A DNA stretch of 40,808 nt, from NCBI GenBank assembly GCA_044355515.1, contig JBIKXY010000002.1, forward strand, positions 1 through 40,808. Direction: 5' to 3'. Below the pieces are notes generated by a model. The model ran no database searches and was not told where the DNA came from. It saw only the letters and a list, made by a program, of their open reading frames with translations. The position numbers and the translations under genes are program-made. Of the stretch, positions 1-37,469 are shown piece after piece; position 1 is the stretch's first letter; every line of letters starts with the position of its first letter. The DNA is from Pirellulales bacterium (GTDB taxonomy: Bacteria > Planctomycetota > Planctomycetia > Pirellulales > UBA1268).

Positions 1-1729
1 GCTCGGCCCCCACCACGAGCCAGCCGTCGCGGACATCGACGTAGCCGGCCTTCATGTGCTCGGCCAGCCCCGACGGGCGATACCGCGGCAGCGGCCGGAT
101 CGACTGGCCGAGGAACAATCCCAGCGCCTGCTGCCACGCCGGCGCCCGGTCGGCCGGCGGCGGCGGGGTGAACTCCGCCTCGCCCCGCGTGAATCGCCAG
201 CCCGCGGCATCGCGATCGAGCCGGTAGCCGAGGCGGATCTCCCGCGGCTCCTCCTCGACGACCTGGCCGGCGAGCTCGCAGCCCGTCGTTCGCAGCACGA
301 GATCGATGCCGCCGGGCACGACCCGCACCGCGGCGGGCCGCTCGGCCGCCAGCGTGATCACCGCCGGGATCCGGGCCGCGGGAAGCCGCCGCCACTCGTC
401 GCTCGAAAGCTTGCACTGCACCTCCCACAGCCCGCGGACGGTCGCCTCGTCGAGCCGCAGCCCGGACAGCGCCTCCAGGCTGTTGTTGACCGCCGACTCG
501 TGGACCCAGGTGACCATGTCGAGCCGGGCAAGATCGGCCGCGGCGATCACCGGCCGCGGGGCGATGGCCCCCAGCTGGTCGCTCCCGGCATACCAGGTGT
601 CGCTCCGCATCCCGAGGGCGTCGTTCGAGAGCCTGATCTCGGGCCTGAAGTCGAGGGCCGCGAGCCGGTCCCACACGCCCCACTGCAACAGACCGTTGAG
701 CTTGGTGGCGAGCGTCGTCGCCTGCTCCTCGACCCGCCCGGCCACCGTCCGCTCGATCCGGCCGGCCACGGCCGGGTCGTTGCCGGCCAGCGCCTCCTGG
801 GCGGCCCGCCGCGCGATCCCCTGCACGATCCGGCAGTGGCCGACGAGGCCGTCCACCCGCAGGCCGGAAACGCGGGTCGTGAACCGGGCCTCGACCGCGG
901 GCGGCTCGACGACCACTGCCGTGGGCGTGAGCCGCACCGTGTCGCTGCCGGTCACGCGGGGCACGGCGGTCGCCGCCACATGAACCCTGCGGCGGTAGGC
1001 CGTGGCGGTGATCCGGCCGTCGCCCACGGCATGGACCACGAGCCGGTTCTCGCCCCTCGACTCCGGCACGCTCGCCGAGATCGCGATGGAGACGTGGCCC
1101 TTCCCGGCGATCGCCGTGCCCGCCTGCCGCTCGTGAAACTCGACCGGCTGGGTGAACTCCCGTCGGGCGATCGCCGCCACGAACTCCCGCTTCAAGAGCA
1201 CCGAGACGTTGGCGCCGGAGAGCCGCTCGCGCAGCCGACGGAGTTCTGATTCGCTCAGCTCATCGGCCGCTACCGCCGCCAGGGCCGCGAAGGCCGCGCG
1301 AACCTCCCCGTCGGTCACGGGCGAAGCCCCGGGGGGGTGGCCGAGGTGTGTCTCGAGCGTGGCCCGGGCAGCCGAGGCCGGGGCCGAACCCTGCTCTGCC
1401 CGCCGGGCCAGCCGCGCAAGCCGCCCCACGCCGGTGCGCAGCCGATCGAGCGCCCCTTGGGCCCGGCCGGGCAGCATTCGCCGCAGCGACCGCTCCAGCC
1501 GCTCGAGCGCACCGGCATCGGAAGGATCTCGGGCGATCTCGGCGGCGACCCAGTCGAGCTCGAGTTCGGGGATCAGGATCACCCCGAGCGGCCCCGTCTC
1601 GAGTTCGGCCCGCAGCGCGGCGGTCGCCGCGGCGGCCTCCTGTCGCGCTTGCTCCCCGGGACCGCCGGCCACACTGCCGCTCGCGGCGACAACCACCAGC
1701 GCGACAACCTGTCGAAGGCAGCGGGACAT
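1..1729 (-). CDS. hypothetical secreted protein, 3' end cut by the window edge
   Basis: Absent from the ORF track because it runs off the window. The minus-strand ATG is the complement of 1727-1729, and by manual translation the frame stays open down to base 2. The N-terminus MSRCLRQVVALVVVAASGSVAGG looks like a signal peptide. Third positions are very G/C-rich (ctg/gcc/cgg/gag), unlike the overlapping + strand track ORFs 56..1249 and 306..983. No family motif recognised. Confidence 0.7.
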   Translation of the reverse strand, partial: MSRCLRQVVALVVVAASGSVAGGPGEQARQEAAAATAALRAELETGPLGVILIPELELDWVAAEIARDPSDAGALERLERSLRRMLPGRAQGALDRLRTGVGRLARLARRAEQGSAPASAARATLETHLGHPPGASPVTDGEVRAAFAALAAVAADELSESELRRLRERLSGANVSVLLKREFVAAIARREFTQPVEFHERQAGTAIAGKGHVSIAISASVPESRGENRLVVHAVGDGRITATAYRRRVHVAATAVPRVTGSDTVRLTPTAVVVEPPAVEARFTTRVSGLRVDGLVGHCRIVQGIARRAAQEALAGNDPAVAGRIERTVAGRVEEQATTLATKLNGLLQWGVWDRLAALDFRPEIRLSNDALGMRSDTWYAGSDQLGAIAPRPVIAAADLARLDMVTWVHESAVNNSLEALSGLRLDEATVRGLWEVQCKLSSDEWRRLPAARIPAVITLAAERPAAVRVVPGGIDLVLRTTGCELAGQVVEEEPREIRLGYRLDRDAAGWRFTRGEAEFTPPPPADRAPAWQQALGLFLGQSIRPLPRYRPSGLAEHMKAGYVDVRDGWLVVGAE

Positions 1730-1833
1730 GCGCAGACCCGGGAACGCAGGGTACAACAGGCCGCGTCCCTTGCCGCCGCCGGGATCATACCTGCTCCGGC
1801 GGCCGGTTGCTGCATCCCGCGGGAGATCGCCCG

Positions 1834-4800
1834 ATGGACGTGTTTCGCCTCGGTTTGTGCGTCGGCCTGGGCCTGCTCCTGTGGCGGGCGCAGATCCGTG
1901 GGATCCGGCCGGTGAGGGATTTTTTTCTCTGGGGCGTTGACTACCCGTTCCACTTCCTGATCACGGCCGTGTTCATCCTCGTGATCTGGGGCGGGCTCGG
2001 GGGGGCCTTCGGCCTCCAGGGGCTGTTCCTCGACGAGGATCCGCTCACGCAGGTGCTGCTCGGCGGCACGGTGATGCTGCTCTTCGCCGCGATCGTGGTG
2101 CACTACGTGGCCCTCGGCAGTTCCCGCCCCGGCTGGTGGGCTTCGCTGCACCGGCTCACGGGCGTGCTCCGCGGGCTCAACACGCTCGCCCCGCCGGACA
2201 AGCCCGTGCACTCGGCGCTGGCCAACGGGTTTCTGGAGCGGCTCTCGGCCGCCGACATCGAGGCCCTCGACGTCGCGGCGCGAACCGCGGTGGCCGACCC
2301 TGCGGGGCACGGGGTCGCGACCGGCTCGCTCGACCGCGAGTTGCACGACGCGCTCGAGAGCGAGCCGTTTCGCCTGCTCGTGGCCCCGGCCATCTTCCTC
2401 GTGAAGGGCTTCGCGCTGGTGGTCTTGGTGGGCCTCGTGCCCGCCGTCGTGATCCCGCTGGCCAACCGGGATCCGCAGGGAGTATTCGAACGGCTGCCGT
2501 GGCTCGTGGGCGTGTGCCTCGGCGACGTCATGGGCATCCTGCTCTGCTGCTGGACGACGGCCTGGCTCGCCCAGGCGGCCGGCTGGACCGCGCGGCAGGA
2601 GGCGATCCTCGGCACGCTGCGTCGGTGGGAGACCGCGGGAGGCGCGGCGGCCGCGGCCGCGGCACTCCCGGCGACGCCCCGCTTGACCACTCCGCCGGCC
2701 TGGCTCGTGTTTCTGGCCTGGTTCTTCGCAATTCACGCGGCCGTCACGCTGCTCGTGCCCCGCGACCTGACCTCGCTCTGGATCGACTGGCCGGAGCGGA
2801 ACCTGGCCATGCAGGACGCGGGCGGCCGCCGGGGCGCGAGTGCCTGGACCGAAAACTTCCCCTGGCTGCCCGCGGCGGTCCTGGCCGCCGAGGCGGCCCT
2901 GGCCGGGATCCTCGCGGCGGCCCAACGGCGGGCCGGCAGCCTGGCCAGCGGCCTCGACTGGCGGCCGCTCCTGGCTCCCCCACTGGCGGCCACGGTGCAC
3001 GTGCTGCGGGCCGACTGGCTCCATCGCCTCGTGATCGCGGTGGCGGCCGTGATCGCCGTCGCGTCGGTGGCCGTGACGCTCGGCGTGCGGCCCGAAGCGG
3101 GCGCATCGGCCTGGATCGGACTGCGGGGCTATGCGTCGCTCGGCGCGATCCTCCTCTGCTGGCTGGGCATCTTCTGGCTGGCGACCCATGCGGCCGCCGG
3201 CGGCGGCGCCCGCACGCCGCTCGAACAGCGGACCGCAATCCTCGGGCTCGTCGTCCTCGCGGTCCTGCACGTGCTCGGCGCTCCCCCCGCCCTGATCGCG
3301 CCGCTGGCCGCGGCCGCGGCGATCCTCTCCGGCTCCCGGACCCTCGCCAGCCTGCGGGGCGCCGAGCCGCCGGCCTGGCTGCGGCCCGGCTGGGCCGCCG
3401 TGCTCGCCGTCGTGGCGGCGCTGTCGCTGCTCATCGCCTGGCAGGTCGGCGGTATCGCGGTGGCGGCCGGCGTCTGGCTGGGGCTGGCGGTCTTGTTTCT
3501 CGGCTCCACGTCGCTCGCCCAGGTGGCCTCCCGCCAGCCGGCGCTGCTCTATCCGCTGACCGTGCTGCTCGGCTACGTGTCCTTCGCGATTCCCTACGCC
3601 ACCCTCGACGAGCGGTGGAAGTCGGCCCTCCCGGCCGCCGGGTCGATCGCCTGCGGGATCGCGCTGGTGGCCGCGAGCTACGCGATCCTGGTCCACGCCC
3701 GACCCCGCAGCGCGCTGCTCACCGTGGCGGCGGCCCTCGGCACGGCGCTGCTCGTCAACGGCGCGGCGCTGTTCGTCGCACCCAACGAGTTCAAGGGCAC
3801 CTTCCCCAACATGGAGGCCTACTACGCGCTGCCGGTCTACCTCGACTCCCGCGACTACTTCCGCGACACGACACCTTCGACGGCCCGGCTCCGCAACCGG
3901 GCCGTGACCGAGGACTTCGACCGGATCGCCCGGCAGGGCTACAGCGAGCGGCTCGCCACTGTCTACTTCGCGGTCCGGCCGCTCGAGCGGCGGAGCGACG
4001 GTAGCCACGCGGTGGTGGTCGATGTCGAGGACCCGCGCGGCAGGCTGCGGGCCGTGCCGGGCGACGCGGTCGGGCTGGCCGCCGAGGAGTGGTTCACGAT
4101 CCGGCTGGACGACGACGACTGCATCGCGCTGGCCGAGGAGCCGTTCTACCGGCGGATCCACCGCCTGTTCGGCTACGAGAACCTCCACCTGATCCGCAAC
4201 GGCATCATCCGCGGCCAGCGGCGCCGGCTCGTGCCGGCCGCCGGAGCCGACGCCGATCGGCCCGGCGTCATTCCCTACTCGTTCCTGACGGAGCCGGCCC
4301 CGCCGGGCATGACCGCGGCCGACGTCGCCGACGCCGACACGGTCCTCGGCCTGCGGCTCCGCGGCCTGGCGCACGAATACCGCGAACTCGAGGCGGAATA
4401 TGCCCTGATCGCGATGAACTGGCGGGGCCGCGTGGTGGCCGCGCGGCGCGAGCCACAGGCCGACGTGTATCGCGTCGAGTTCTCGCTGCCGGCCGGCGTT
4501 CCGCCGCTGACGGACGAGCAACTCGTCACGATGCAGTCGTGGATGGAGCGCTGCCACCTCGACACGCTCCGGCCGGCGGAGCCGGCCGCCACCGCTCCCG
4601 CCGCTGGACGGGCGGGCGAGTGCCTCGTGCTCGAGGACGCCCGCACCGACGCGCCGGTGCCGGTGGGCGTGTTCTTCGCCGGGCTGCCGGATCCCGGGAC
4701 CCACGCCCCCGCCTTCGACACCTACTGGCCCACGCCGGGGGCGATTCGCCGCACGATCGAGGCGACCCCGGCCTCGGCCCCCGTGCCGCCGACGTCGGCC

Positions 4801-6804
4801 CGCCCCGGCGCCGATCCCGCCGCCGGCTTCACGCTCCGGCCGGCACACGACCGGGGGCTGTTCGCGAGTCCGGACGCGGCCGTGCGGCTGCTGGAGTCAC
4901 CGCGGGCCGCGTCACTCCCGGCGACGGAACTGACCCTGGCCCTCTACAACGCGGGCCGGCTGCGGCCGGGCGACCAGCTGATCCTCTCCTGGAACGGCCG
5001 CCACGGCACGGCCAGCGGCCCCGACCTCGCGCGGTGCGCGGTCTGCGAAGTCGTGGCGCTCGGCGCGGCTCCCATGGCCGGTGACGACGGCAGGCCCCTG
5101 CCTCCGGGCGCGGTGTGGGTCAGGCTGGTGCCGGTTGGCCGGCTGCCGGTGCCGGGCCCGGCGACCGGGGCCCCGCAGGGCGGGCTCGTCGTCGGCCAGT
5201 GGCAGAACCTCCAGCTCCTCAACAACGCCGAGGTGTTGCTCGCCTGGAAGAACCTCGTGGGCGGCCGCTGGCAGGGCCGCAAGCCCAAGCTCGTGATCGT
5301 CACGGTAAGCGGGGGCGGGATCCGGGCGAGCGTCTGGGCCTCGGTCGTGCTCCGCAAGCTCGAGGCCACGCTGGGCGCCGACTTCCCCTACCACATCCGC
5401 CTGGTCACCGGCGCCTCCGGCGGCATGGTGGCCGGCTCCTATTACGTGACGTCGCTCCGCCCGCCCACGCCCGCGGTGCTGGCCGGCGAGCGGGCCTCGT
5501 TCGCCGACCTCCATGGCGTCTCGATCGGCGATTTCGTGGACCGGATGGGCCTCGACCAGCTCGACGCGGTCGCCGGCCGGATGCTGTTCGCCGACCTGCC
5601 CGCCACGCTCAACCCGTTCCTCCGCCAGGGAGACCGGGGCCGCACGCTCGAGCAGACCTGGATCCGCTGGACCGGAGGCGGGGAAAGCCCGCTGGGCCGG
5701 CCGATCCAGTCCTACGCGGCCGACGAGCGGCTCGGCTGGCGGCCGTCGCTGGTGTTCACGCCGATGATGGTCGAGGATGGAAGGCGGCTGTTGATCAGCA
5801 ACCTCGACCTCGCCTTCGCCACCCGGAACGTGGGGGGCCTGTTGCTCGAGCCGTCGTCGCGGAAGATCGAGCGGCCGGCGATCCAGGGGGGCGACTTCGA
5901 CCAGAGCATCCATGAGGAGGACGAGGTGTTCTCGCTCTCGGCGGTCGAGTTCTTCCGGCTGTTCCCCCGGGCGGCCGACTTCCAGGTGACCACGGCGATC
6001 CGCATGAGCGCCTCGTTCCCGTGGGTCTCGCCGGCCTTCAACCTGCCCACGCTCCCACCCCGCCGGGTGGTCGATGCCGCCTACTACGACAACTACGGCA
6101 TCAACCTCTCGGCCCTCTGGCTCTCGAAACTCGGGGCCTGGCTCCAGGAGAACACCTCGGGCGTGCTCGTCGTGCAGGTCCGCGACAAGGTGAGCCAGGG
6201 GGCCCGGACGGAGATCGACTTCGACCGGGTCGGCGGCGACGATCCGCCCCTCGACCGCCTCGTCTGGAACGGCGGCAGCAAGCTGCTGCGTCCCGGGCTG
6301 CAGGCGCTGAGCACGCCGCTGGTGGGCGTCACGAACGCCCGCCAATGGACGATGGCCTTCCGCAACGACGAGCAGGTCGATCTCCAGGATCTGCTGTTCG
6401 ACGAGTTGAGCGGCCAGGACTTTTTCCGCACGGTCGTGTTCGAATGCCCGGTGGACGTGTCGCTCAACTGGCGGCTCACCGACCGGGAGAAGGCTGTCCT
6501 CGTCGGGGGCTTCGGCAGGCCGGATGCCGCACCCGAGGACGAGCTGGCCCGGGTCAAGGACTACCTCACGGGCCGCGACTCGTACGAGTTTCACAAGTGG
6601 CGGCTGGAGAACCGCAACCGGCCGGCGTTTCGCCGGGAGCTGAAGGCCCGCTACGACGAGCAGCTTCGGGCGCTGGGTTTCGCGGCCACCGACCGGCTGT
6701 CGCTGGAGGAGAGCCAGAGCCTGTACGAGAACGTGGTCAAGAACCTCAAGCGGCTCGGGCTGCTGGCCGACTGGTGGCAGGCGGGCCGGGTGCCGGCCCG
6801 CTGA
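1834..6804 (+). CDS. giant polytopic membrane protein (1656 aa) with a C-terminal patatin-like phospholipase domain
   Basis: This lies in the frame of track ORF 1348..6804. The likely real start is ATG 1834 (MDVFRLGLCVGLGLLLW), preceded by GGGAGA 8 nt upstream, and the upstream part of the ORF is Arg/Pro-rich junk. The first ~640 aa are successive hydrophobic Ala/Leu/Gly-rich helices. About 650 aa of soluble sequence of unknown fold follow. The patatin motifs come next: oxyanion SGGGIRA (5308-5328), nucleophile GASGG with the Ser codon at 5416-5418, ASxSxP-like MSASFPWVSP, and catalytic Asp in VVDAAYYDNYG (Asp codon 6073-6075). Confidence 0.85.
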   Translation: MDVFRLGLCVGLGLLLWRAQIRGIRPVRDFFLWGVDYPFHFLITAVFILVIWGGLGGAFGLQGLFLDEDPLTQVLLGGTVMLLFAAIVVHYVALGSSRPGWWASLHRLTGVLRGLNTLAPPDKPVHSALANGFLERLSAADIEALDVAARTAVADPAGHGVATGSLDRELHDALESEPFRLLVAPAIFLVKGFALVVLVGLVPAVVIPLANRDPQGVFERLPWLVGVCLGDVMGILLCCWTTAWLAQAAGWTARQEAILGTLRRWETAGGAAAAAAALPATPRLTTPPAWLVFLAWFFAIHAAVTLLVPRDLTSLWIDWPERNLAMQDAGGRRGASAWTENFPWLPAAVLAAEAALAGILAAAQRRAGSLASGLDWRPLLAPPLAATVHVLRADWLHRLVIAVAAVIAVASVAVTLGVRPEAGASAWIGLRGYASLGAILLCWLGIFWLATHAAAGGGARTPLEQRTAILGLVVLAVLHVLGAPPALIAPLAAAAAILSGSRTLASLRGAEPPAWLRPGWAAVLAVVAALSLLIAWQVGGIAVAAGVWLGLAVLFLGSTSLAQVASRQPALLYPLTVLLGYVSFAIPYATLDERWKSALPAAGSIACGIALVAASYAILVHARPRSALLTVAAALGTALLVNGAALFVAPNEFKGTFPNMEAYYALPVYLDSRDYFRDTTPSTARLRNRAVTEDFDRIARQGYSERLATVYFAVRPLERRSDGSHAVVVDVEDPRGRLRAVPGDAVGLAAEEWFTIRLDDDDCIALAEEPFYRRIHRLFGYENLHLIRNGIIRGQRRRLVPAAGADADRPGVIPYSFLTEPAPPGMTAADVADADTVLGLRLRGLAHEYRELEAEYALIAMNWRGRVVAARREPQADVYRVEFSLPAGVPPLTDEQLVTMQSWMERCHLDTLRPAEPAATAPAAGRAGECLVLEDARTDAPVPVGVFFAGLPDPGTHAPAFDTYWPTPGAIRRTIEATPASAPVPPTSARPGADPAAGFTLRPAHDRGLFASPDAAVRLLESPRAASLPATELTLALYNAGRLRPGDQLILSWNGRHGTASGPDLARCAVCEVVALGAAPMAGDDGRPLPPGAVWVRLVPVGRLPVPGPATGAPQGGLVVGQWQNLQLLNNAEVLLAWKNLVGGRWQGRKPKLVIVTVSGGGIRASVWASVVLRKLEATLGADFPYHIRLVTGASGGMVAGSYYVTSLRPPTPAVLAGERASFADLHGVSIGDFVDRMGLDQLDAVAGRMLFADLPATLNPFLRQGDRGRTLEQTWIRWTGGGESPLGRPIQSYAADERLGWRPSLVFTPMMVEDGRRLLISNLDLAFATRNVGGLLLEPSSRKIERPAIQGGDFDQSIHEEDEVFSLSAVEFFRLFPRAADFQVTTAIRMSASFPWVSPAFNLPTLPPRRVVDAAYYDNYGINLSALWLSKLGAWLQENTSGVLVVQVRDKVSQGARTEIDFDRVGGDDPPLDRLVWNGGSKLLRPGLQALSTPLVGVTNARQWTMAFRNDEQVDLQDLLFDELSGQDFFRTVVFECPVDVSLNWRLTDREKAVLVGGFGRPDAAPEDELARVKDYLTGRDSYEFHKWRLENRNRPAFRRELKARYDEQLRALGFAATDRLSLEESQSLYENVVKNLKRLGLLADWWQAGRVPAR

Positions 6805-16442: not shown

Positions 16443-16452
16443 TCGGAGAGAT

Positions 16453-16526
<74 letters not shown>

Positions 16527-16587
16527 GTGGCGGCCGGCGGGCCGAATGGGTTTGGGCGTTTCAGGGCCCGGCCGCTAGGCTCCTGGC

Positions 16588-17130
16588 ATGGAACGGGCGT
16601 CCACCATCCATCGCGTCGTCGGGTTCGACCCCGGCCTCAACGTCACCGGCTACGGGATCGTGGAGTGCCAGGGCGGGAGCGTGAAGCTCGTCGAGGCCGG
16701 CACGGTCCGGTCGCAGGGCGACTCGATCGAGACCCGGCTGGCCACCATTCATGCGGGCGTCCGCGAGGTGCTCGAGACCTTTTCCCCCTCGGCCATGGCG
16801 ATCGAGCAGGTGTTCGCCCATGCCCGGTTTCCCAAGGCCGCGATCCTCCTGGGCCACGCCCGAGGCGTGATCTGCCTGGCCGGAGCGCAGGCGGGCCTGG
16901 CCGTGCACCACTATCTGCCGAATCGCGTGAAGAGCGCGCTCACCGGCAGCGGCCACGCCGGCAAGGAGCAGGTCCAGGCGGCCGTGCAGCGGGAGCTCGC
17001 CCTCGCCTCGAAGCCTGAGCCGGCTGACGCCGCTGACGCCCTGGCCGTGGCGCTGGCCGACTGGCACCTCCGACTACGGCCCTTGTTTTTCGGGACGGGA
17101 ACGGTGCGGATTCGGAGCAGCCGGGCATGA
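16588..17130 (+). CDS. ruvC: crossover junction endodeoxyribonuclease RuvC
   Basis: HRVVGFDPGLNVTGYGIVE is the RuvC N-terminal catalytic Asp motif. The product is 180 aa and the stop overlaps the ruvA start (ATGA). Confidence 0.92.
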   Translation: MERASTIHRVVGFDPGLNVTGYGIVECQGGSVKLVEAGTVRSQGDSIETRLATIHAGVREVLETFSPSAMAIEQVFAHARFPKAAILLGHARGVICLAGAQAGLAVHHYLPNRVKSALTGSGHAGKEQVQAAVQRELALASKPEPADAADALAVALADWHLRLRPLFFGTGTVRIRSSRA

Positions 17131-17756
17131 TCACACGGGTTTCAGGCACGCTCGAACGGGTCGAGCCGACGGCGGTCGAGGTGGCCGTGGGGCCGATGGT
17201 GCACGAGGTGCTCGTCACCGAGCTCGTCCGCCGCAGCCTGCAGACGAAGATCGGCCAGCCGGTCGTGCTCCACACGCTCGAATACCTCGAGGGCAACCCA
17301 ACCCGGGGCAATCTCGTGCCCCGGCTGGTGGGCTTTCTTTCGGAGGTCGAGCGGGAGTTCTTCGAGCTGATCTGCGAGGTCGATGGCGTGGGTGTCCGCA
17401 AGGCGCTGCGGGCGATCGTGCGGCCAGTGGGCGAGATCGCCGCGGCGATCGAGGAGCAGGACGCCAAGAGCCTGTCGGGGTTGCCGGGCATCGGCGCGGC
17501 CACGGCCGAACGGATGATCGCCAAGCTCCGGCGGCGGATGCCGAAGTTCGCCCTGCTCGTGGCCCGCGAGGCCCCTGGCGAGGCGGGCGGCGCGGCCGAC
17601 GTGCTCTCCGAGACCTTCGATGTCTTGCGGTCGCTGGGCCACTCCGACCCCGAGGCCCGCCGGCTGGTGGACACGCTCCGGGGCGAGAAGAAGAAGCCCA
17701 AGGACGTGCAAGAAGCCCTCGAGGCCATCTACCGGCAGATGCACAAGCCGCGGTGA
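17127..17756 (+). CDS. ruvA: Holliday junction branch migration complex subunit RuvA
   Basis: MITRVSGTLERVEP...VEVAVGPMVHEVLV is the OB-fold start. The HhH region GVGVRKALRAIV...LPGIGAATAERMI follows. The product is 209 aa. Confidence 0.92.
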   Translation: MITRVSGTLERVEPTAVEVAVGPMVHEVLVTELVRRSLQTKIGQPVVLHTLEYLEGNPTRGNLVPRLVGFLSEVEREFFELICEVDGVGVRKALRAIVRPVGEIAAAIEEQDAKSLSGLPGIGAATAERMIAKLRRRMPKFALLVAREAPGEAGGAADVLSETFDVLRSLGHSDPEARRLVDTLRGEKKKPKDVQEALEAIYRQMHKPR

Positions 17757-17758
17757 CA

Positions 17759-17909
17759 GACGAGCCCGGGATCGGCGGCTGCTCGAGGAGCTTTTGGGAA
17801 TCGCCCCTCTGGATTTTCAAGCGCAGCCACCTTGGCCGAGCCACCCCACAGCCGGTCGCCGCGATTCCCACCGCGACAAGACAGCTGCCGTCCCGGGCGG
17901 TGCCAACCG
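17759..17909. repeat. 151-bp structured intergenic repeat, copy 1
   Basis: Identical to 17939..18089 except for one base (17878 A versus 18058 G). There is an internal inverted repeat: the outer arms CCCGGGATCGGCGGCTG (17765-17781) and CAGCTGCCGTCCCGGG (17882-17897), and a perfect 10-bp inner stem TGGGAATCGC (17795-17804) / GCGATTCCCA (17861-17870). Confidence 0.9.
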
Positions 17910-17938
17910 GCGGCCTCACGGACCCCAGCCGAACACCG

Positions 17939-18089
17939 GACGAGCCCGGGATCGGCGGCTGCTCGAGGAGCTTTTGGGAATCGCCCCTCTGGATTTTCAA
18001 GCGCAGCCACCTTGGCCGAGCCACCCCACAGCCGGTCGCCGCGATTCCCACCGCGACGAGACAGCTGCCGTCCCGGGCGGTGCCAACCG
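17939..18089. repeat. 151-bp structured intergenic repeat, copy 2
   Basis: A direct repeat of 17759..17909, offset by exactly 180 bp (29-bp spacer 17910-17938). Confidence 0.9.
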
Positions 18090-18130
18090 TTAGACTTCCC
18101 GAGTCAATCGAACCACGGAGCGATCGTCCG

Positions 18131-19147
18131 ATGGAATCCTTTCGCGAGCCGTCGATCCAGGGGCCGCCTGAGCCGCAGCCCGAGGACCGCGCCCTGCGGC
18201 CCCAGCGGATGGCCGAGATGATCGGCCAGCGGGCCGTCTACGAGCGGCTCGAGATCGCGATCGACGCCTCGCGGAAGCGGGGCGAGACGCTCGGCCACAT
18301 CCTGCTCGATGGCCCCCCGGGGCTGGGTAAGACCACCTTCGCCACCTGCATCCCCAACGAACTGGGCGTGAGCCTCCAGATCGCGAGCGGCGCGGCGCTC
18401 TCGGCCCCCAAGGACCTGCTGCCCTACCTCACCAACGCCGCCGAAGGCTCGGTGCTGTTCATCGACGAGATTCACCGGCTGCCGATCGCGGTCGAGGAGT
18501 TTCTCTATCCGGCGATGGAGGATTTCCGGATCGACATCACGCTCGGCGACGGCGTGGCGGCCCGCACGATCAACATGCCGCTCAGGCCCTTCACGCTCGT
18601 GGGGGCGACCACGCGGTCGGGCCTGCTCTCGGCCCCGCTCCGCGACCGGTTCGTGATCCGCGAGCACCTCGACTACTACTCGCCCGAGGAGCTGGCCGAG
18701 ATCGTGCATCGCTCGGCCGGCAAACTGCAGATGCCGATGGACGACGAGACGGCCTGGGAGATCGCCCGCCGCAGCCGGGGCACGCCCCGGCTGGCCAACA
18801 ATCGCCTGCGTTGGATCCGCGACTACTCAACCAGCCGCGCCGAGGGTCGGCTCGACGTGGACATCGCCCGCGTCGCCCTGGCGATGCAGGGCATCGACGA
18901 GCTCGGCCTCGACGGCTTCGATCGGCGCTATCTGGAGACGATCCAGCGGGTCTTCGCCGGCGGACCGGTGGGCATCGAGGCGATCGCCCACACGATGAGC
19001 TCCGCCCCCGACACGCTCGAGGATGACGTGGAGCCCTTCCTGCTACGGTGCGAGCTGGTGATCCGCACCCCCCGCGGCCGCAAGCTCACGCCCAAGGGCG
19101 ACGAGCACCTCGGCGGCACGCCCGCCGCCCGCGGCCGGTTGTTTTAG
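18131..19147 (+). CDS. ruvB: Holliday junction DNA helicase RuvB
   Basis: The start ATG 18131 (MESFREPS...) has GGAG about 10 nt upstream. The Walker A motif is LLDGPPGLGKTT, followed by VLFIDEIHRL and the remaining RuvB AAA+ blocks. The track ORF 17753..19147 adds 126 aa that are just the two repeats read in frame. Confidence 0.9.
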   Translation: MESFREPSIQGPPEPQPEDRALRPQRMAEMIGQRAVYERLEIAIDASRKRGETLGHILLDGPPGLGKTTFATCIPNELGVSLQIASGAALSAPKDLLPYLTNAAEGSVLFIDEIHRLPIAVEEFLYPAMEDFRIDITLGDGVAARTINMPLRPFTLVGATTRSGLLSAPLRDRFVIREHLDYYSPEELAEIVHRSAGKLQMPMDDETAWEIARRSRGTPRLANNRLRWIRDYSTSRAEGRLDVDIARVALAMQGIDELGLDGFDRRYLETIQRVFAGGPVGIEAIAHTMSSAPDTLEDDVEPFLLRCELVIRTPRGRKLTPKGDEHLGGTPAARGRLF

Positions 19148-19170
19148 GCCACGACCACCGGGGTGGGTCG

Positions 19171-19277
19171 CCGGGGGTGAAAGCCTCCGTCGCCTGGAAT
19201 ATTTCGCTTCCACGCCGCTTGCCGCTGCCACGTCAACGCTGCGAAATCTTCAGGGCTCCTCCGGCTTCCACCCCCGG
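19171..19277 (+). repeat. ~105-bp near-palindromic 3'-end element, copy A
   Basis: The left arm is CCGGGGGTGAAAGCCTCCGTCGC...GGAATATTTCGC. The right arm is GCGAAATCTTCAGGGCTCCTCCGGCTTCCACCCCCGG. The arms can pair with each other. Both are found again, as the reverse complement, at 37315..37419 with 23-24-nt exact blocks. This copy starts 24 nt after the ruvB stop. Confidence 0.85.
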
Positions 19278-19357
19278 CGGACTGCAGGGCGTTTCGGGCA
19301 CCCATTTGCCCGCGATCCCGTTGGACGCTACGATCCGGGCCTTCCCCGAGGTGCCCC

Positions 19358-19537
19358 ATGGCCGTTCCCAAGCGACGTCAGTCGAACCAAAAGACCCGCT
19401 CCCGGCGGGCCCACGATTTTCTCACGCCCCGGCAGCTGACCTTCTGCCCCACCTGCGGGAAGGCGGTGCCCACGCACCGGGTCTGCGAGACCTGCGGCCA
19501 CTACATGGGCCGCCCCGTGGTCAAGACCGAGGAGTAG
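19358..19537 (+). CDS. rpmF: 50S ribosomal protein L32
   Basis: Not in the ORF track (59 aa). Manual translation gives MAVPKRRQSNQKTRSRRAHDFLTPRQLTFCPTCGKAVPTHRVCETCGHYMGRPVVKTEE. This shows the canonical MAVPKRR start and a CxxC...CxxC zinc ribbon. The stop is TAG 19535-19537. Confidence 0.92.
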   Translation: MAVPKRRQSNQKTRSRRAHDFLTPRQLTFCPTCGKAVPTHRVCETCGHYMGRPVVKTEE

Positions 19538-30280: not shown

Positions 30281-31566
30281 CCGCACCCAAGCGCCCCGTT
30301 CCCCCCAAGTCTCGCCCTGCCGCTCCGGCCAAGCCTGTCCCGCCCGCCAAGGCCGGCTCGAAGGCTGTCCAAGCGGCCGCAAAGGCAGGCCCGGCCAAGC
30401 CGGCCGCAAAGGCAGGCCCGGCCAAGCCGGTGGCAAAGGGAGGGCCCGCCAAGCCGGTGGCAAAGGGAGGGCCCGCCAAGCCGGCGGCCGCGCCGCAGGA
30501 GCCGAAGCCGGTGCCGGAAAAAACTCCGCCTCGTGGCCAGTTGCTTCCCAAACTGCACAAGGCGCTCAAGAGCCACTACACGCCGTTTGCAGCCAACACC
30601 TCGCGGGACTTGCTCGACCAGGTGTTGTTCGCTTGTTGTCTGGAGAACGCTCCGGCTGACGTCGCCGAAAAGGCGTTTGCCCGGCTGAAGCAGGTCTATG
30701 CCGATCCAAACGAGGTGCGGGTGACGACGGTCGCAGAACTCGCCGAGGCCCTGCACGACCTCCCCGATCCGGCGCGGGCGGCGCTCGCACTCCGCCGCGC
30801 CCTCCAGGGCGTGTTCGAGTCGACCTACATGTTTTCCCTCGACCATGCCCGAAAAAACTCGCTCGCCCACGGCCTGAAGATCCTCGAAGGACTTCACGGC
30901 GTGCCGCCTTTCGCCGTGCAATACGTGGCCTCGACCGCCCTCGGCGGACACCTGATCCCGCTCGACCGGGCCGCCCTGGCAGCCTTGTGGCTCTGCGGTC
31001 TTGTCACGCAGCAGGAATACGACTCGGGCAAGGTGCCGGGGCTGGAACGGATCATCGCCAAGAAGTCGGGCGGGGAGTTCAGCTCGCTCCTCCATCAGTT
31101 CGGCATCGACGTGCTCACCAATCTTCATGGCAACACCGTCCGGAAGATCGTGCAGGCCGTGAACCCTGCCGCCAAGGACCGGTTTCCGAAGCGAGGGGAG
31201 CAGGTGCCCGAGCCCGTGCCCCCGGTGGTGACCGACAAGGCGGGGATCAAGGCGGCCGATGCGGCCCGGGCGGCGGCCGAGGAACTTCGCCCGGCGGGGC
31301 CGCAGGCGGCAGCCCGGCCGGCCGGCAAAACTCCGCTGCCACCCCCGGGCTCGGGCCCCAAGAAGCCGGGCGACGGCAAGGGCAAGAGCGGGCCAAAACC
31401 GTTCGTCGTCAAGCCGCTGTCGATCAAGCCGCCCGCGGCCCCGCCGGCTCCGGTACCGGAGCCGGCGCCGAAGGCCGCGGCCAAGCCGCCCAAGGCGGCC
31501 GCGGTCGTCAAGCCCAAGCCGACGCTCAAGCACTCGGCCCAGTTGAGCAAACGGAAGCCGCGCTAG
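30277..31566 (+). CDS. hypothetical protein: Lys/Pro/Ala-repeat tails flanking an EndoIII-like helix-hairpin-helix core (candidate DNA-binding protein)
   Basis: The ATG overlaps the rbfA stop (ATGA). The N-terminal ~90 aa and C-terminal ~130 aa are AKxGPAKP/KP-rich. The core (RDLLDQVLFACCLENAPADVAEKAFARLKQ...LEGLHGVPPFAVQYVASTALGGHLIPLDRA) follows the EndoIII/HhH-GPD helix pattern but lacks the HhH lysine and the C-terminal Cys cluster. Confidence 0.6.
   Translation: MTAPKRPVPPKSRPAAPAKPVPPAKAGSKAVQAAAKAGPAKPAAKAGPAKPVAKGGPAKPVAKGGPAKPAAAPQEPKPVPEKTPPRGQLLPKLHKALKSHYTPFAANTSRDLLDQVLFACCLENAPADVAEKAFARLKQVYADPNEVRVTTVAELAEALHDLPDPARAALALRRALQGVFESTYMFSLDHARKNSLAHGLKILEGLHGVPPFAVQYVASTALGGHLIPLDRAALAALWLCGLVTQQEYDSGKVPGLERIIAKKSGGEFSSLLHQFGIDVLTNLHGNTVRKIVQAVNPAAKDRFPKRGEQVPEPVPPVVTDKAGIKAADAARAAAEELRPAGPQAAARPAGKTPLPPPGSGPKKPGDGKGKSGPKPFVVKPLSIKPPAAPPAPVPEPAPKAAAKPPKAAAVVKPKPTLKHSAQLSKRKPR
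30376..30483 (+). repeat. in-frame 27-bp tandem repeat x4 inside the CDS
   Basis: Units 30376-30402 and 30403-30429 are identical (AAKAGPAKP). Units 30430-30456 and 30457-30483 are identical (VAKGGPAKP). Confidence 0.9.
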
Positions 31567-37031: not shown

Positions 37032-37110
37032 GGGCGGCCTTCCGCACGCAGGCTCGGTTCAACCCCATGCCATCTCGCGGACGCTCGGGGGGCCTTGCGC
37101 GCGCACGCTC

Positions 37111-37269
37111 GGGGCAATGCCCATGCCATCTCGCCGGACGCTCGCGACGGGCATCCTGCCCTTCGCTCGCTCGGAGAAAACCTCGCTTCGCCGACCAATC
37201 CGCTGCGCGGATCGGTACCCGGGCTACGCGAGGTTTTCTACGCCGCTCGACTGGCATGGGCCTTGCCCC
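37111..37269. repeat. nested long hairpin 3' of efp
   Basis: The outer stem is GGGGCAATGCCCATGCCA (37111-37128) / TGGCATGGGCCTTGCCCC (37252-37269), 18 bp with 1 mismatch. The middle stem is AGAAAACCTCGC (37175-37186) / GCGAGGTTTTCT (37228-37239), perfect. The inner stem is CCAATCCGC (37195-37203) / GCGGATCGG (37207-37215). In addition, the 24/25-nt direct repeat CCCATGCCATCTCGC(C)GGACGCTCG occurs at 37064-37087 and 37120-37144. Confidence 0.75.
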
Positions 37270-37314
37270 TCGCAGTCCATCGGTGGTCATGCACTGAATG
37301 CGATCAACCGGGAG

Positions 37315-37419
37315 CCGGGGGTGGAAGCCGGAGGAGCCTGGAGATTTCGCCCCCAGGACGCCGCCTTCACAAGCCGCACCGCGGCGAAATATCCCAGCGA
37401 CGGAGGCTTTCACCCCCGG
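37315..37419 (-). repeat. ~105-bp near-palindromic 3'-end element, copy B
   Basis: The reverse complement carries CCGGGGGTGAAAGCCTCCGTCGC, GGATATTTCGC, GCGAAATCTCCAGGCTCCTCCGGCTTCCACCCCCGG. This matches 19171..19277 in both arms, while the central ~30 nt differ. It lies 51 nt downstream of the proS stop on the minus strand. Confidence 0.85.
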
Positions 37420-37469
37420 CTCCCCATTCCACAGGAGCCTGACAGTGCAACCGCCGGGCGTAAAGCAAG

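Follow-up and report, generated by a model that had tools for sequence, protein, structure and literature searches.

In the 40,808-nt stretch of Pirellulales bacterium DNA that was analyzed as a whole (contig JBIKXY010000002.1, positions 1–40,808 of the forward strand; here called the window), the genes ruvA and ruvB are separated by a gap of 374 nt that holds two near-identical copies of an imperfect hairpin of ~135 nt, termed Y. We consider it the best reading, with a probability of roughly 0.6, that Y is the ruv-resident subfamily of a clade-specific and apparently undescribed superfamily of 75–150-nt intergenic hairpin repeats, similar in kind to repetitive extragenic palindromic (REP) sequences and miniature inverted-repeat transposable elements (MITEs). 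The members of this superfamily share two covarying helices around an invariant GA-rich loop, in which 5′ ..GA-GC.. faces 5′ ..GC-GA.., and at the ruv locus Y probably provides ruvCA transcripts with a stable 3′-terminal stem-loop.

A preliminary description of the window, made from its letters, had reported an overlap of ruvC and ruvA (ATGA), followed after ruvA by two self-complementary 151-nt copies with 150/151 identity, a 29-nt spacer and a period of 180 nt. Open reading frames (ORFs) and Pfam domains confirmed this gene layout including the length of the ruvA–ruvB gap, and both repeat analyses yielded the same arrangement: Tandem Repeats Finder returned 17759–18089 as 1.8 copies of a 180-nt period (99% matches), and a repeat search returned two 151-nt copies identical at 150/151 positions (99%), the sole difference being A17878 versus G18058. 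A 33-nt probe derived from the unit matched just these two sites in the 40.8-kb window, with 0 matches in 100 shuffles. The copy-to-copy junction is present as an independent unitig in each of two lake metagenomes (X1 and X2), where it begins in the final part of one copy, passes through GCGGCCTCACGGACCCCAGC and enters the following copy; the doubling is therefore real, and an assembly artefact is ruled out as its source.

The self-complementary stems of each copy correspond to a stable predicted fold. As plus-strand RNA the full 151-nt unit reaches −74.8 kcal/mol (z = −4.6), with 0 of 200 shuffles folding as well, and the Y hairpin trimmed from it reaches −73.9 kcal/mol (z = −5.4). The minus-strand RNA of the unit folds less distinctively (z = −2.5), and as single-stranded DNA the two strands fold about equally. 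The same fold was obtained for all Y copies, with z ranging from −4.9 to −7.2. In copy 2 it starts with an 8-bp basal helix, a bulged U17952 and a 9-bp helix containing the pair G17957·U18066, which is replaced by G-C in a second subclade. These are followed by a 4-bp CUCG/CGAG helix with a bulged A18061, the GA-rich internal loop, a 10-bp helix formed by 17975–17984 and 18041–18050 (10–11 bp across the Y copies) and a variable tip. At the base of the stem the arms form 21 bp, interrupted by two bulges, and constitute terminal inverted repeats of the kind that characterizes MITEs. Because every relative has a G at the position of A17878, forming a pair there, copy 1 is the derived copy.

To place Y among other repeats, we used covariance models (CMs). 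A first model (R1), built solely from Y copies and run against 388 kb of DNA, retrieved further hairpins (E = 7e-7 to 1e-3), among them a different type, termed X, which matched in the opposite orientation. A second model (R2) found ~30 members in related loci, in both orientations, at places ahead of ruvC, in the ruvC–ruvA and ruvA–ruvB gaps and after ruvB, as well as at a second locus of the window; four members lie within the 40.8-kb window itself. By blastn, X is dispersed: its copies in the window lie just after ruvB (19166–19279) and at the second site (37314–37420), and relatives carry it ahead of ruvC or behind ruvB. A scan of the loci with regular expressions and a stem search revealed in addition an abundant Z type with the same GAGC/GCGAC core; the CM match to Z-type copies is weak (L057, E = 0.08), and we assign Z to the superfamily only tentatively. 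The features of the window are collected in Table 1.

Table 1. Genes, repeat units, hairpins and short motifs in the window, with the evidence for each.
Feature	Positions	Strand	Evidence and remarks
ruvC	16588–17130	+	Pfam RuvC (E = 5e-45), ORF list; stop overlaps the ruvA start (ATGA)
ruvA	17127–17756	+	Pfam HHH_5 and RuvA_N; 79–100% identity to RuvA of 84 related loci
Repeat unit, copy 1	17759–17909	+	5 nt + Y hairpin + 11-nt promoter-proximal flank GGTGCCAACCG
Y hairpin, copy 1	17764–17898	+	Fold, alignment; CM match 155.9 bits; A17878 opposite C17784 gives a C·A mismatch
Inter-copy spacer	17910–17938	+	29 nt; its homologue in L002/L003 is the terminal 6 nt of the X hairpin together with the X–Y linker
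Repeat unit, copy 2	17939–18089	+	151-nt unitig with exactly these ends in lake metagenome X1
Y hairpin, copy 2	17944–18078	+	Fold, covariation; CM match 160 bits
Core, 5′ half (AGGAGC)	17966–17971	+	Near-invariant; G17970-C17971 pair with G18053-C18054
Core, 3′ half (GCGA)	18053–18056	+	Near-invariant; superfamily alignment
−10-like hexamer TAGACT	18091–18096	+	34 nt before the ruvB ATG and 12 nt after the hairpin base; putative promoter role
GGAG, likely Shine–Dalgarno motif of ruvB	18117–18120	+	Read from the sequence; conserved in L002, L003, L004, L007, L011 and L015
ruvB	18131–19147	+	Pfam RuvB_N, AAA_lid_4 and RuvB_C
X-type hairpin	19169–19280	−	Between ruvB and rpmF; blastn 92% to the X of L003; CM R2 52 bits, E = 4e-8
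Z-type long hairpin	37111–37269	+	Fold of −101 kcal/mol; superfamily membership tentative
X-type hairpin, second	37312–37421	+	Between convergent genes; CM R1 E = 5e-4, CM R2 E = 3e-10, fold

The structure of these hairpins is supported by covariation. In an alignment of 15 superfamily sequences, 93% of the cells are paired, compared with 75% in shuffles and 34–51% in slid controls, and 21 of the 33 pairs change on both sides, values that 0 of 500 shuffles reach; the alignment was fitted to the CM, which favors structure, and inverted DNA repeats would give the same pattern. On the sense strand there are 17 G·U cells and 7 A·C cells, which hints mildly at pairing of that strand as RNA. In the diverged Y of one related locus (L082) the bulged U, the bulged A and the G·U pair are all retained, CUG/CAG is swapped for AAG/CUU, and the upper helix is entirely different yet paired.

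The conserved core lies in the internal loop, where 5′ AGGA-GC-UUU faces 5′ CY-GC-GA. Its GC/GC mini-helix is retained in 14–15 of the 15 superfamily members, and G17968-A17969 can face A18056-G18055 as tandem G·A pairs. Comparison with kink-turns (K-turns) showed that the near-invariant GA-GC/GC-GA arrangement fits; the bulge, however, which has 3 nt in the canonical motif, measures 2 nt in Y and 1 nt in Z, and its length in X is ambiguous. One may entertain the idea of a K-turn-like core, drawn as a 1–3-nt bulge, tandem G·A/A·G pairs and a G-C plus a C-G pair.

We then assessed the occurrence of Y in relatives. A 23-mer of the Y 5′ arm, scanned against one genome per species, matched four planctomycete metagenome-assembled genomes (MAGs; two labelled Pirellulales) once each, all in ruvA–ruvB gaps. 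Loci L001–L004 come from the MAGs JAQCJP01, CAXNGP01, JBIIYH01 and CALGAS01. Scanning metagenomes with the RuvA protein yielded 80 further loci with RuvA 79–97% identical, from which all ruvA–ruvB spacers were extracted. The 60 distinct spacers that are complete in the related loci span lengths of 18–1493 nt, which does not bear out the earlier view of a normally contiguous junction split by the repeats. The ruvC–ruvA junction (L031–L038) and the ruvB–rpmF spacer are similarly variable.

Closely related loci differ markedly in what the gap contains. It is "empty", with just 18 nt, in L005 (RuvA 97% identical), and L007 (RuvA 94%) carries 135 nt of unrelated filler without a hairpin, together with the promoter-proximal GGTGCCAACCG(C/T)TAGACT of the window. 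In L002 and L003 (RuvA 97–100%) an X hairpin is followed by one Y copy, and in L001, L004, L011, L014 and L015 (RuvA ~90%) the 3′ arm of the one Y is repeated in tandem, with one to three additional copies. The diverged Y of L082 is found at a RuvA identity of 83%, and in L063 a short hairpin resembling Y follows ruvB. In metagenome X6 an unbranched 413-nt unitig leads from the ruvA end through one Y to TTAGACT, metagenome X2 contains the X–Y form beside the two-copy junction, and contigs of the RNA libraries X23 and X24 show an 18-nt ruvA–ruvB gap. Several alleles coexist within single lake samples. The copy number of Y is thus a strain-level polymorphism, with empty, Y, Y–Y and X–Y alleles coexisting, and the recent duplication proposed earlier from the near-identity of the copies holds at this level, as one-copy and two-copy alleles occur together in the lake metagenomes. 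The tandem 3′-arm copies, 2–4 in number with a period of ~40 nt (L011 1990–2160, L004 1495–1560, L015 1740–1810), offer alternative pairing partners for the single 5′ arm.

The two-copy allele looks like a recent segmental rearrangement in one strain lineage rather than a transposition, because the duplicated block carries an 11-nt flank and its junction holds a remnant of X. The block is larger than the hairpin, since its 11-nt tail GGTGCCAACCG also occurs in the hairpin-less L007. The 29-nt spacer equals the final 6 nt of X plus the X–Y linker of L002 and L003. As an example, an unequal exchange between single-Y and X–Y alleles at the microhomology CCG could generate Y–Y; the reverse route, from Y–Y to single Y by recombination between the copies, would be equally possible.

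The ruvA–ruvB gap does not encode protein. An extension of the RuvB coding sequence was considered, as an ORF at 17753–19147, whose GTG overlaps the ruvA stop (GTGA), remains open through both copies and the repeat period of 180 nt equals 60 codons; we judged this to be chance. The gap is regarded as non-coding because its G+C content by codon position (0.62/0.66/0.77, compared with 0.72/0.45/0.92 in the flanking genes) is not gene-like, the ruvB frame does not stay open in L004, L011 and L015, with spacer length modulo 3 varying among relatives, and the ORF in the gap has no Pfam match. Nor do the repeats belong to a known RNA family, a point raised by the preliminary description: Rfam 15 gave no match at E ≤ 10 within them and two weak matches in 17000–19000, both in ruvC, and at gathering scores tRNA is the sole match in the whole window. 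6S RNA and the non-coding RNA of retrons were dropped as candidates, the element being absent from close relatives and no reverse transcriptase lying nearby.

Several lines of evidence suggest that ruvB is transcribed on its own across the clade. Exactly one TAnnnT hexamer is found in the last 60 nt of 59 of the 60 distinct complete spacers, including those of 18–23 nt, where by our own estimate ~0.2 per 60 nt would be expected by chance at 70% G+C. Its commonest forms are TAGGCT, TAGACT and TACGCT, and it sits 6–8, 16–20 or 25–37 nt ahead of the ruvB ATG. The minimal ruvB–rpmF spacers of relatives contain a clear promoter, TTGACC-17-TAC(T/C)CT, and because the rpmF promoters read in this way we take TAnnCT to be the local flavor of the −10 element. 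No consistent −35 box was found upstream of the hexamer among the spacers. In some lineages the gap itself separates the two genes: L020 has a textbook terminator after ruvA, and among the 1.3–1.5-kb spacers of L068, L072 and L076 that of L072 harbors an opposite-strand gene (3153–4625, −) with gene-like G+C content by codon position (0.75/0.55/0.90). This gene gave a weak match to a xylose-isomerase-like TIM barrel family.

Based on gaps of 18–1493 nt, on the presence of the hexamer even in 18–23-nt spacers and on the opposite-strand gene or terminator in some lineages, we infer that ruvB very probably has its own promoter across the clade, with or without a hairpin. The suggestion that the repeats uncouple ruvB from ruvA finds no support in these data, as the hexamer is present even in the shortest spacers and a gene or terminator fills some gaps. 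The position of the hexamer just 6–8 nt before the ATG in many relatives suggests a leaderless ruvB mRNA in those lineages.

Taken together, Y lies in a non-coding stretch between the end of the ruvC–ruvA unit and the putative ruvB promoter. Upon transcription of ruvCA each copy would fold into a stable stem-loop of about −74 kcal/mol, which would stop exonucleases arriving from the 3′ end, hinder read-through or recruit RNase III. The stem-loop would in this manner mark the 3′ end of the ruvCA message, with ruvB being expressed from its own promoter regardless. In one metatranscriptome the X-type arms are deeply covered, in agreement with transcription and stability of the hairpins.

By kind, Y is a bacterial intergenic hairpin repeat that lacks the defining marks of REPs, bacterial interspersed mosaic elements (BIMEs), REP doublets forming hairpins (REPINs), enterobacterial repetitive intergenic consensus (ERIC) sequences and Correia elements. 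With the REP/BIME/REPIN group it shares the form of imperfect intergenic palindromes, often located just downstream of genes inside clusters, occurring in both orientations as singles, inverted pairs and clusters and varying between strains. REPs stabilize the upstream mRNA and attenuate downstream expression. The superfamily units are 75–150 nt in length, whereas 20–40 nt is the measure for REPs, and no GTAG was found at the hairpin foot; CGTC, the alternative foot tetranucleotide of REPs, occurs in the reverse-complemented 3′ core (CGTCGC), though inside the stem and away from the foot. Furthermore, the most conserved part is the internal GA-rich loop ~20 bp up the stem and not a terminal tetranucleotide, no REP-associated tyrosine transposase was identified, and the Y type is confined to a single locus. 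REPs have been reported in Planctomycetes (PMC3733652).

Similar considerations apply to the Correia elements of Neisseria (also called Neisseria miniature insertion sequences, NEMIS) and to the ERIC sequences or intergenic repeat units (IRU) of enterobacteria, which are hairpin MITEs of ~100–150 bp. They resemble Y in size, in long inverted arms that fold when co-transcribed, in insertion between operon genes and in strain-variable presence. Correia hairpins are cut by RNase III, altering mRNA stability. Their 26-bp terminal repeats, TA target duplication and integration host factor (IHF) site are all unseen in Y, there is no sequence similarity to either group, and the termini of the present superfamily vary with compensation around an invariant internal loop. 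Closer in architecture are the RNase III hairpins of phage T7 type, with a lower helix, an asymmetric internal loop and an upper helix between two genes, where the upstream message retains a protective 3′ hairpin after cleavage. The predicted lower helix of Y is longer (21 bp with two bulges), and the present element is repeated across the genome in both orientations. From the same phylum come REPtron-like class 3 HuH-Y1 (TnpA-Y1) genes with flanking atypical hairpins, found mainly in Planctomycetes and Acidobacteria, whose atypical structures reach up to hundreds of copies per genome (PMC6006769). Such an enzyme is a plausible best lead for what mobilizes the superfamily; compared by description only, the 5′ CnGA foot of its hairpins (PMC6006769) has no convincing counterpart here. 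In the literature searched we found no account of the Y element, its superfamily or hairpins at the ruvA–ruvB junction.

A number of observations weigh against reading Y as a member of a mobile-type repeat family that forms the end of ruvCA messages. Y was found solely next to ruvB and always in one orientation, the invariant-arm 23-mer has its single match per MAG at ruv in all four MAGs, and unitig depth corresponds to ~1–2 Y copies per genome (151-nt Y unitig at 21.7 versus 17–19 for its flanks in metagenome X1, and 45.5 versus ~20 in X2). Comparison of filled and empty alleles of Y and X revealed no target-site duplication: the hairpin is flanked by ..CAGACGA and GGTGCC.. without a shared direct repeat, the copies of L002, L003, L004 and of X likewise lack one at their own flanks, and the alleles are no simple insertion or excision pairs, because the ruvB leader differs too. 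The MITE/REP-like character proposed initially holds for the superfamily with its dispersed members in both orientations and not for Y itself, which is undispersed. No transposase is present among the window genes examined, and neither the window nor the loci showed a HuH-Y1 gene. The arms of Y are also more conserved than expected of a neutral passenger, being identical at 33/33 and 28/29 positions between the window and L004-type lineages in which third codon positions are 65–73% identical and the tip has diverged; this points to sequence-specific constraint. With regard to transcription, no intrinsic terminator was called at the hairpins, which lack a U-tract and are followed by GGUGCCAACCGUUAGAC, and a consensus sigma-70 promoter scan called none at the repeats. 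Y-like contigs in three metatranscriptomes are of depth 2–5, unstranded and too thin for ends or processing sites. Y is not covered in four RNA runs that do contain ruv sequence.

Because the arms are constrained beyond synonymous sites, a host function is kept alive as an explanation, namely that Y is a host-selected cis-regulatory element dedicated to ruvB and tuning its expression, either as a structured RNA or DNA hairpin whose K-turn-like GA-rich loop and invariant arms bind a protein or through placement of the 3′ arm in the −35 position of the ruvB promoter. Apart from the arm identity, this proposal can draw on the single locus and fixed orientation of Y, on the bulges, G·U pair, two compensatory pairs and replaced but paired upper helix of the diverged L082 copy, on the excess of G·U over A·C cells on the sense strand, and on the 12-nt distance from arm to hexamer, which the two subclades share, including in loci with additional inserted arm copies. 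We nevertheless regard it as somewhat unlikely, as close relatives manage with an 18-nt gap or unrelated filler in place of Y, other lineages fill this position with a whole gene or with superfamily members that are unrelated or inverted, one-copy and two-copy alleles share the same populations, and copy 1 already has a pair-breaking change; moreover, paired arms evolve slowly under constraint whatever their function. A broader version, in which GA-rich K-turn-like hairpins form a new class of modular protein-binding RNA at intergenic and 3′-untranslated sites of this freshwater planctomycete clade from which Y was domesticated for ruvB control, would explain the invariant arms despite ~30% synonymous divergence, and we hold it to be doubtful.

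That Y is a currently mobile MITE or REPIN, having transposed to this site and then beside itself with a transposase encoded elsewhere, such as a class 3 HuH-Y1 enzyme, is in our view quite improbable. Its inverted-repeat arms, small size and lack of coding capacity would suit this explanation, as would its presence or absence among close strains, the dispersal of its relatives in both orientations and the REPtron-like genes with atypical hairpins reported from Planctomycetes (PMC6006769). In addition, community depth over the Y arms is 2–4 times that of the centre, and because these arms are also joined to other centres and flanks, related elements exist in other organisms or sites. The duplicated block, however, contains an 11-nt non-hairpin flank and an X remnant at its junction, as in a segmental event, and the missing target-site duplications, the one match per MAG always at ruv, the depth of ~1–2 copies per genome and the lack of a transposase in the window all speak against it. 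An integron attC site was rejected as well: the GTTAGAC after copy 2 fits GTTRRRY by chance, this being the place of the −10-like hexamer, where relatives read GCTAGAC or GGTAGGC even when hairpin-less, and neither an integrase nor cassettes were found around Y. Least credible, and very improbable, is the view of Y as a stand-alone small RNA gene that has a promoter and a terminator to itself and lies between ruvA and ruvB by accident. A stable, conserved and covarying structure would fit such a gene, and the three metatranscriptomes with Y-like contigs leave the flanking ruvA and ruvB (17500–18400) unmatched at ≥85%; yet there is no promoter-like element upstream of Y, no terminator downstream and no Rfam family match, close relatives lack the element, and the low-depth, unstranded RNA contigs run into the neighboring X element and may include DNA carry-over.

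Further features were noted in the window and in related loci. Downstream of ruvB, rpmF occupies 19358–19537; the ruvB–rpmF spacer varies from 61 to ~600 nt among relatives, and relatives' contigs in metagenomes X2 and X4 skip 19123–19357 and are without the X hairpin after ruvB. The block between convergent genes at 37032–37430 combines a 55-nt tandem duplication (37032–37144) with the Z-type and second X-type hairpins. In L033 (2230–2500; also L031, L032, L034–L038 and L056) ruvC and ruvA lie ~420 nt apart with a 75-nt superfamily hairpin between them, and this type of gap contains runs of the pentanucleotides GACCT and GAACC. A 176-nt contig of metatranscriptome X26 matches ruvB at 18458–18624 with 14 mismatches at a depth of ~2100, far above neighboring ruvB. 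Directly upstream of ruvC, a tRNA-Arg (ACG) at 16452–16527 is highly covered in RNA runs. Elsewhere, an ORF of 1818 aa (1348–6804) has gene-like G+C content by codon position and no Pfam match at E ≤ 1e-5, and a 27-nt tandem repeat is located at 30369–30485 (4.4 copies, 92% matches).

Overall, Y is a real and fairly ordinary kind of bacterial feature, explained in outline. For annotation, it means that ruvC–ruvA–ruvB of this uncultured lake planctomycete clade is no tight operon and that its junctions are landing zones for hairpin repeats. The superfamily, without an Rfam match and with a conserved internal loop in place of the usual conserved termini, extends the catalogue of bacterial intergenic repeats. 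Its hairpins could serve as a strain marker and explain assembly breaks at such sites. If the loop binds a protein, it would provide a handle on post-transcriptional control, of which little is known in this phylum.

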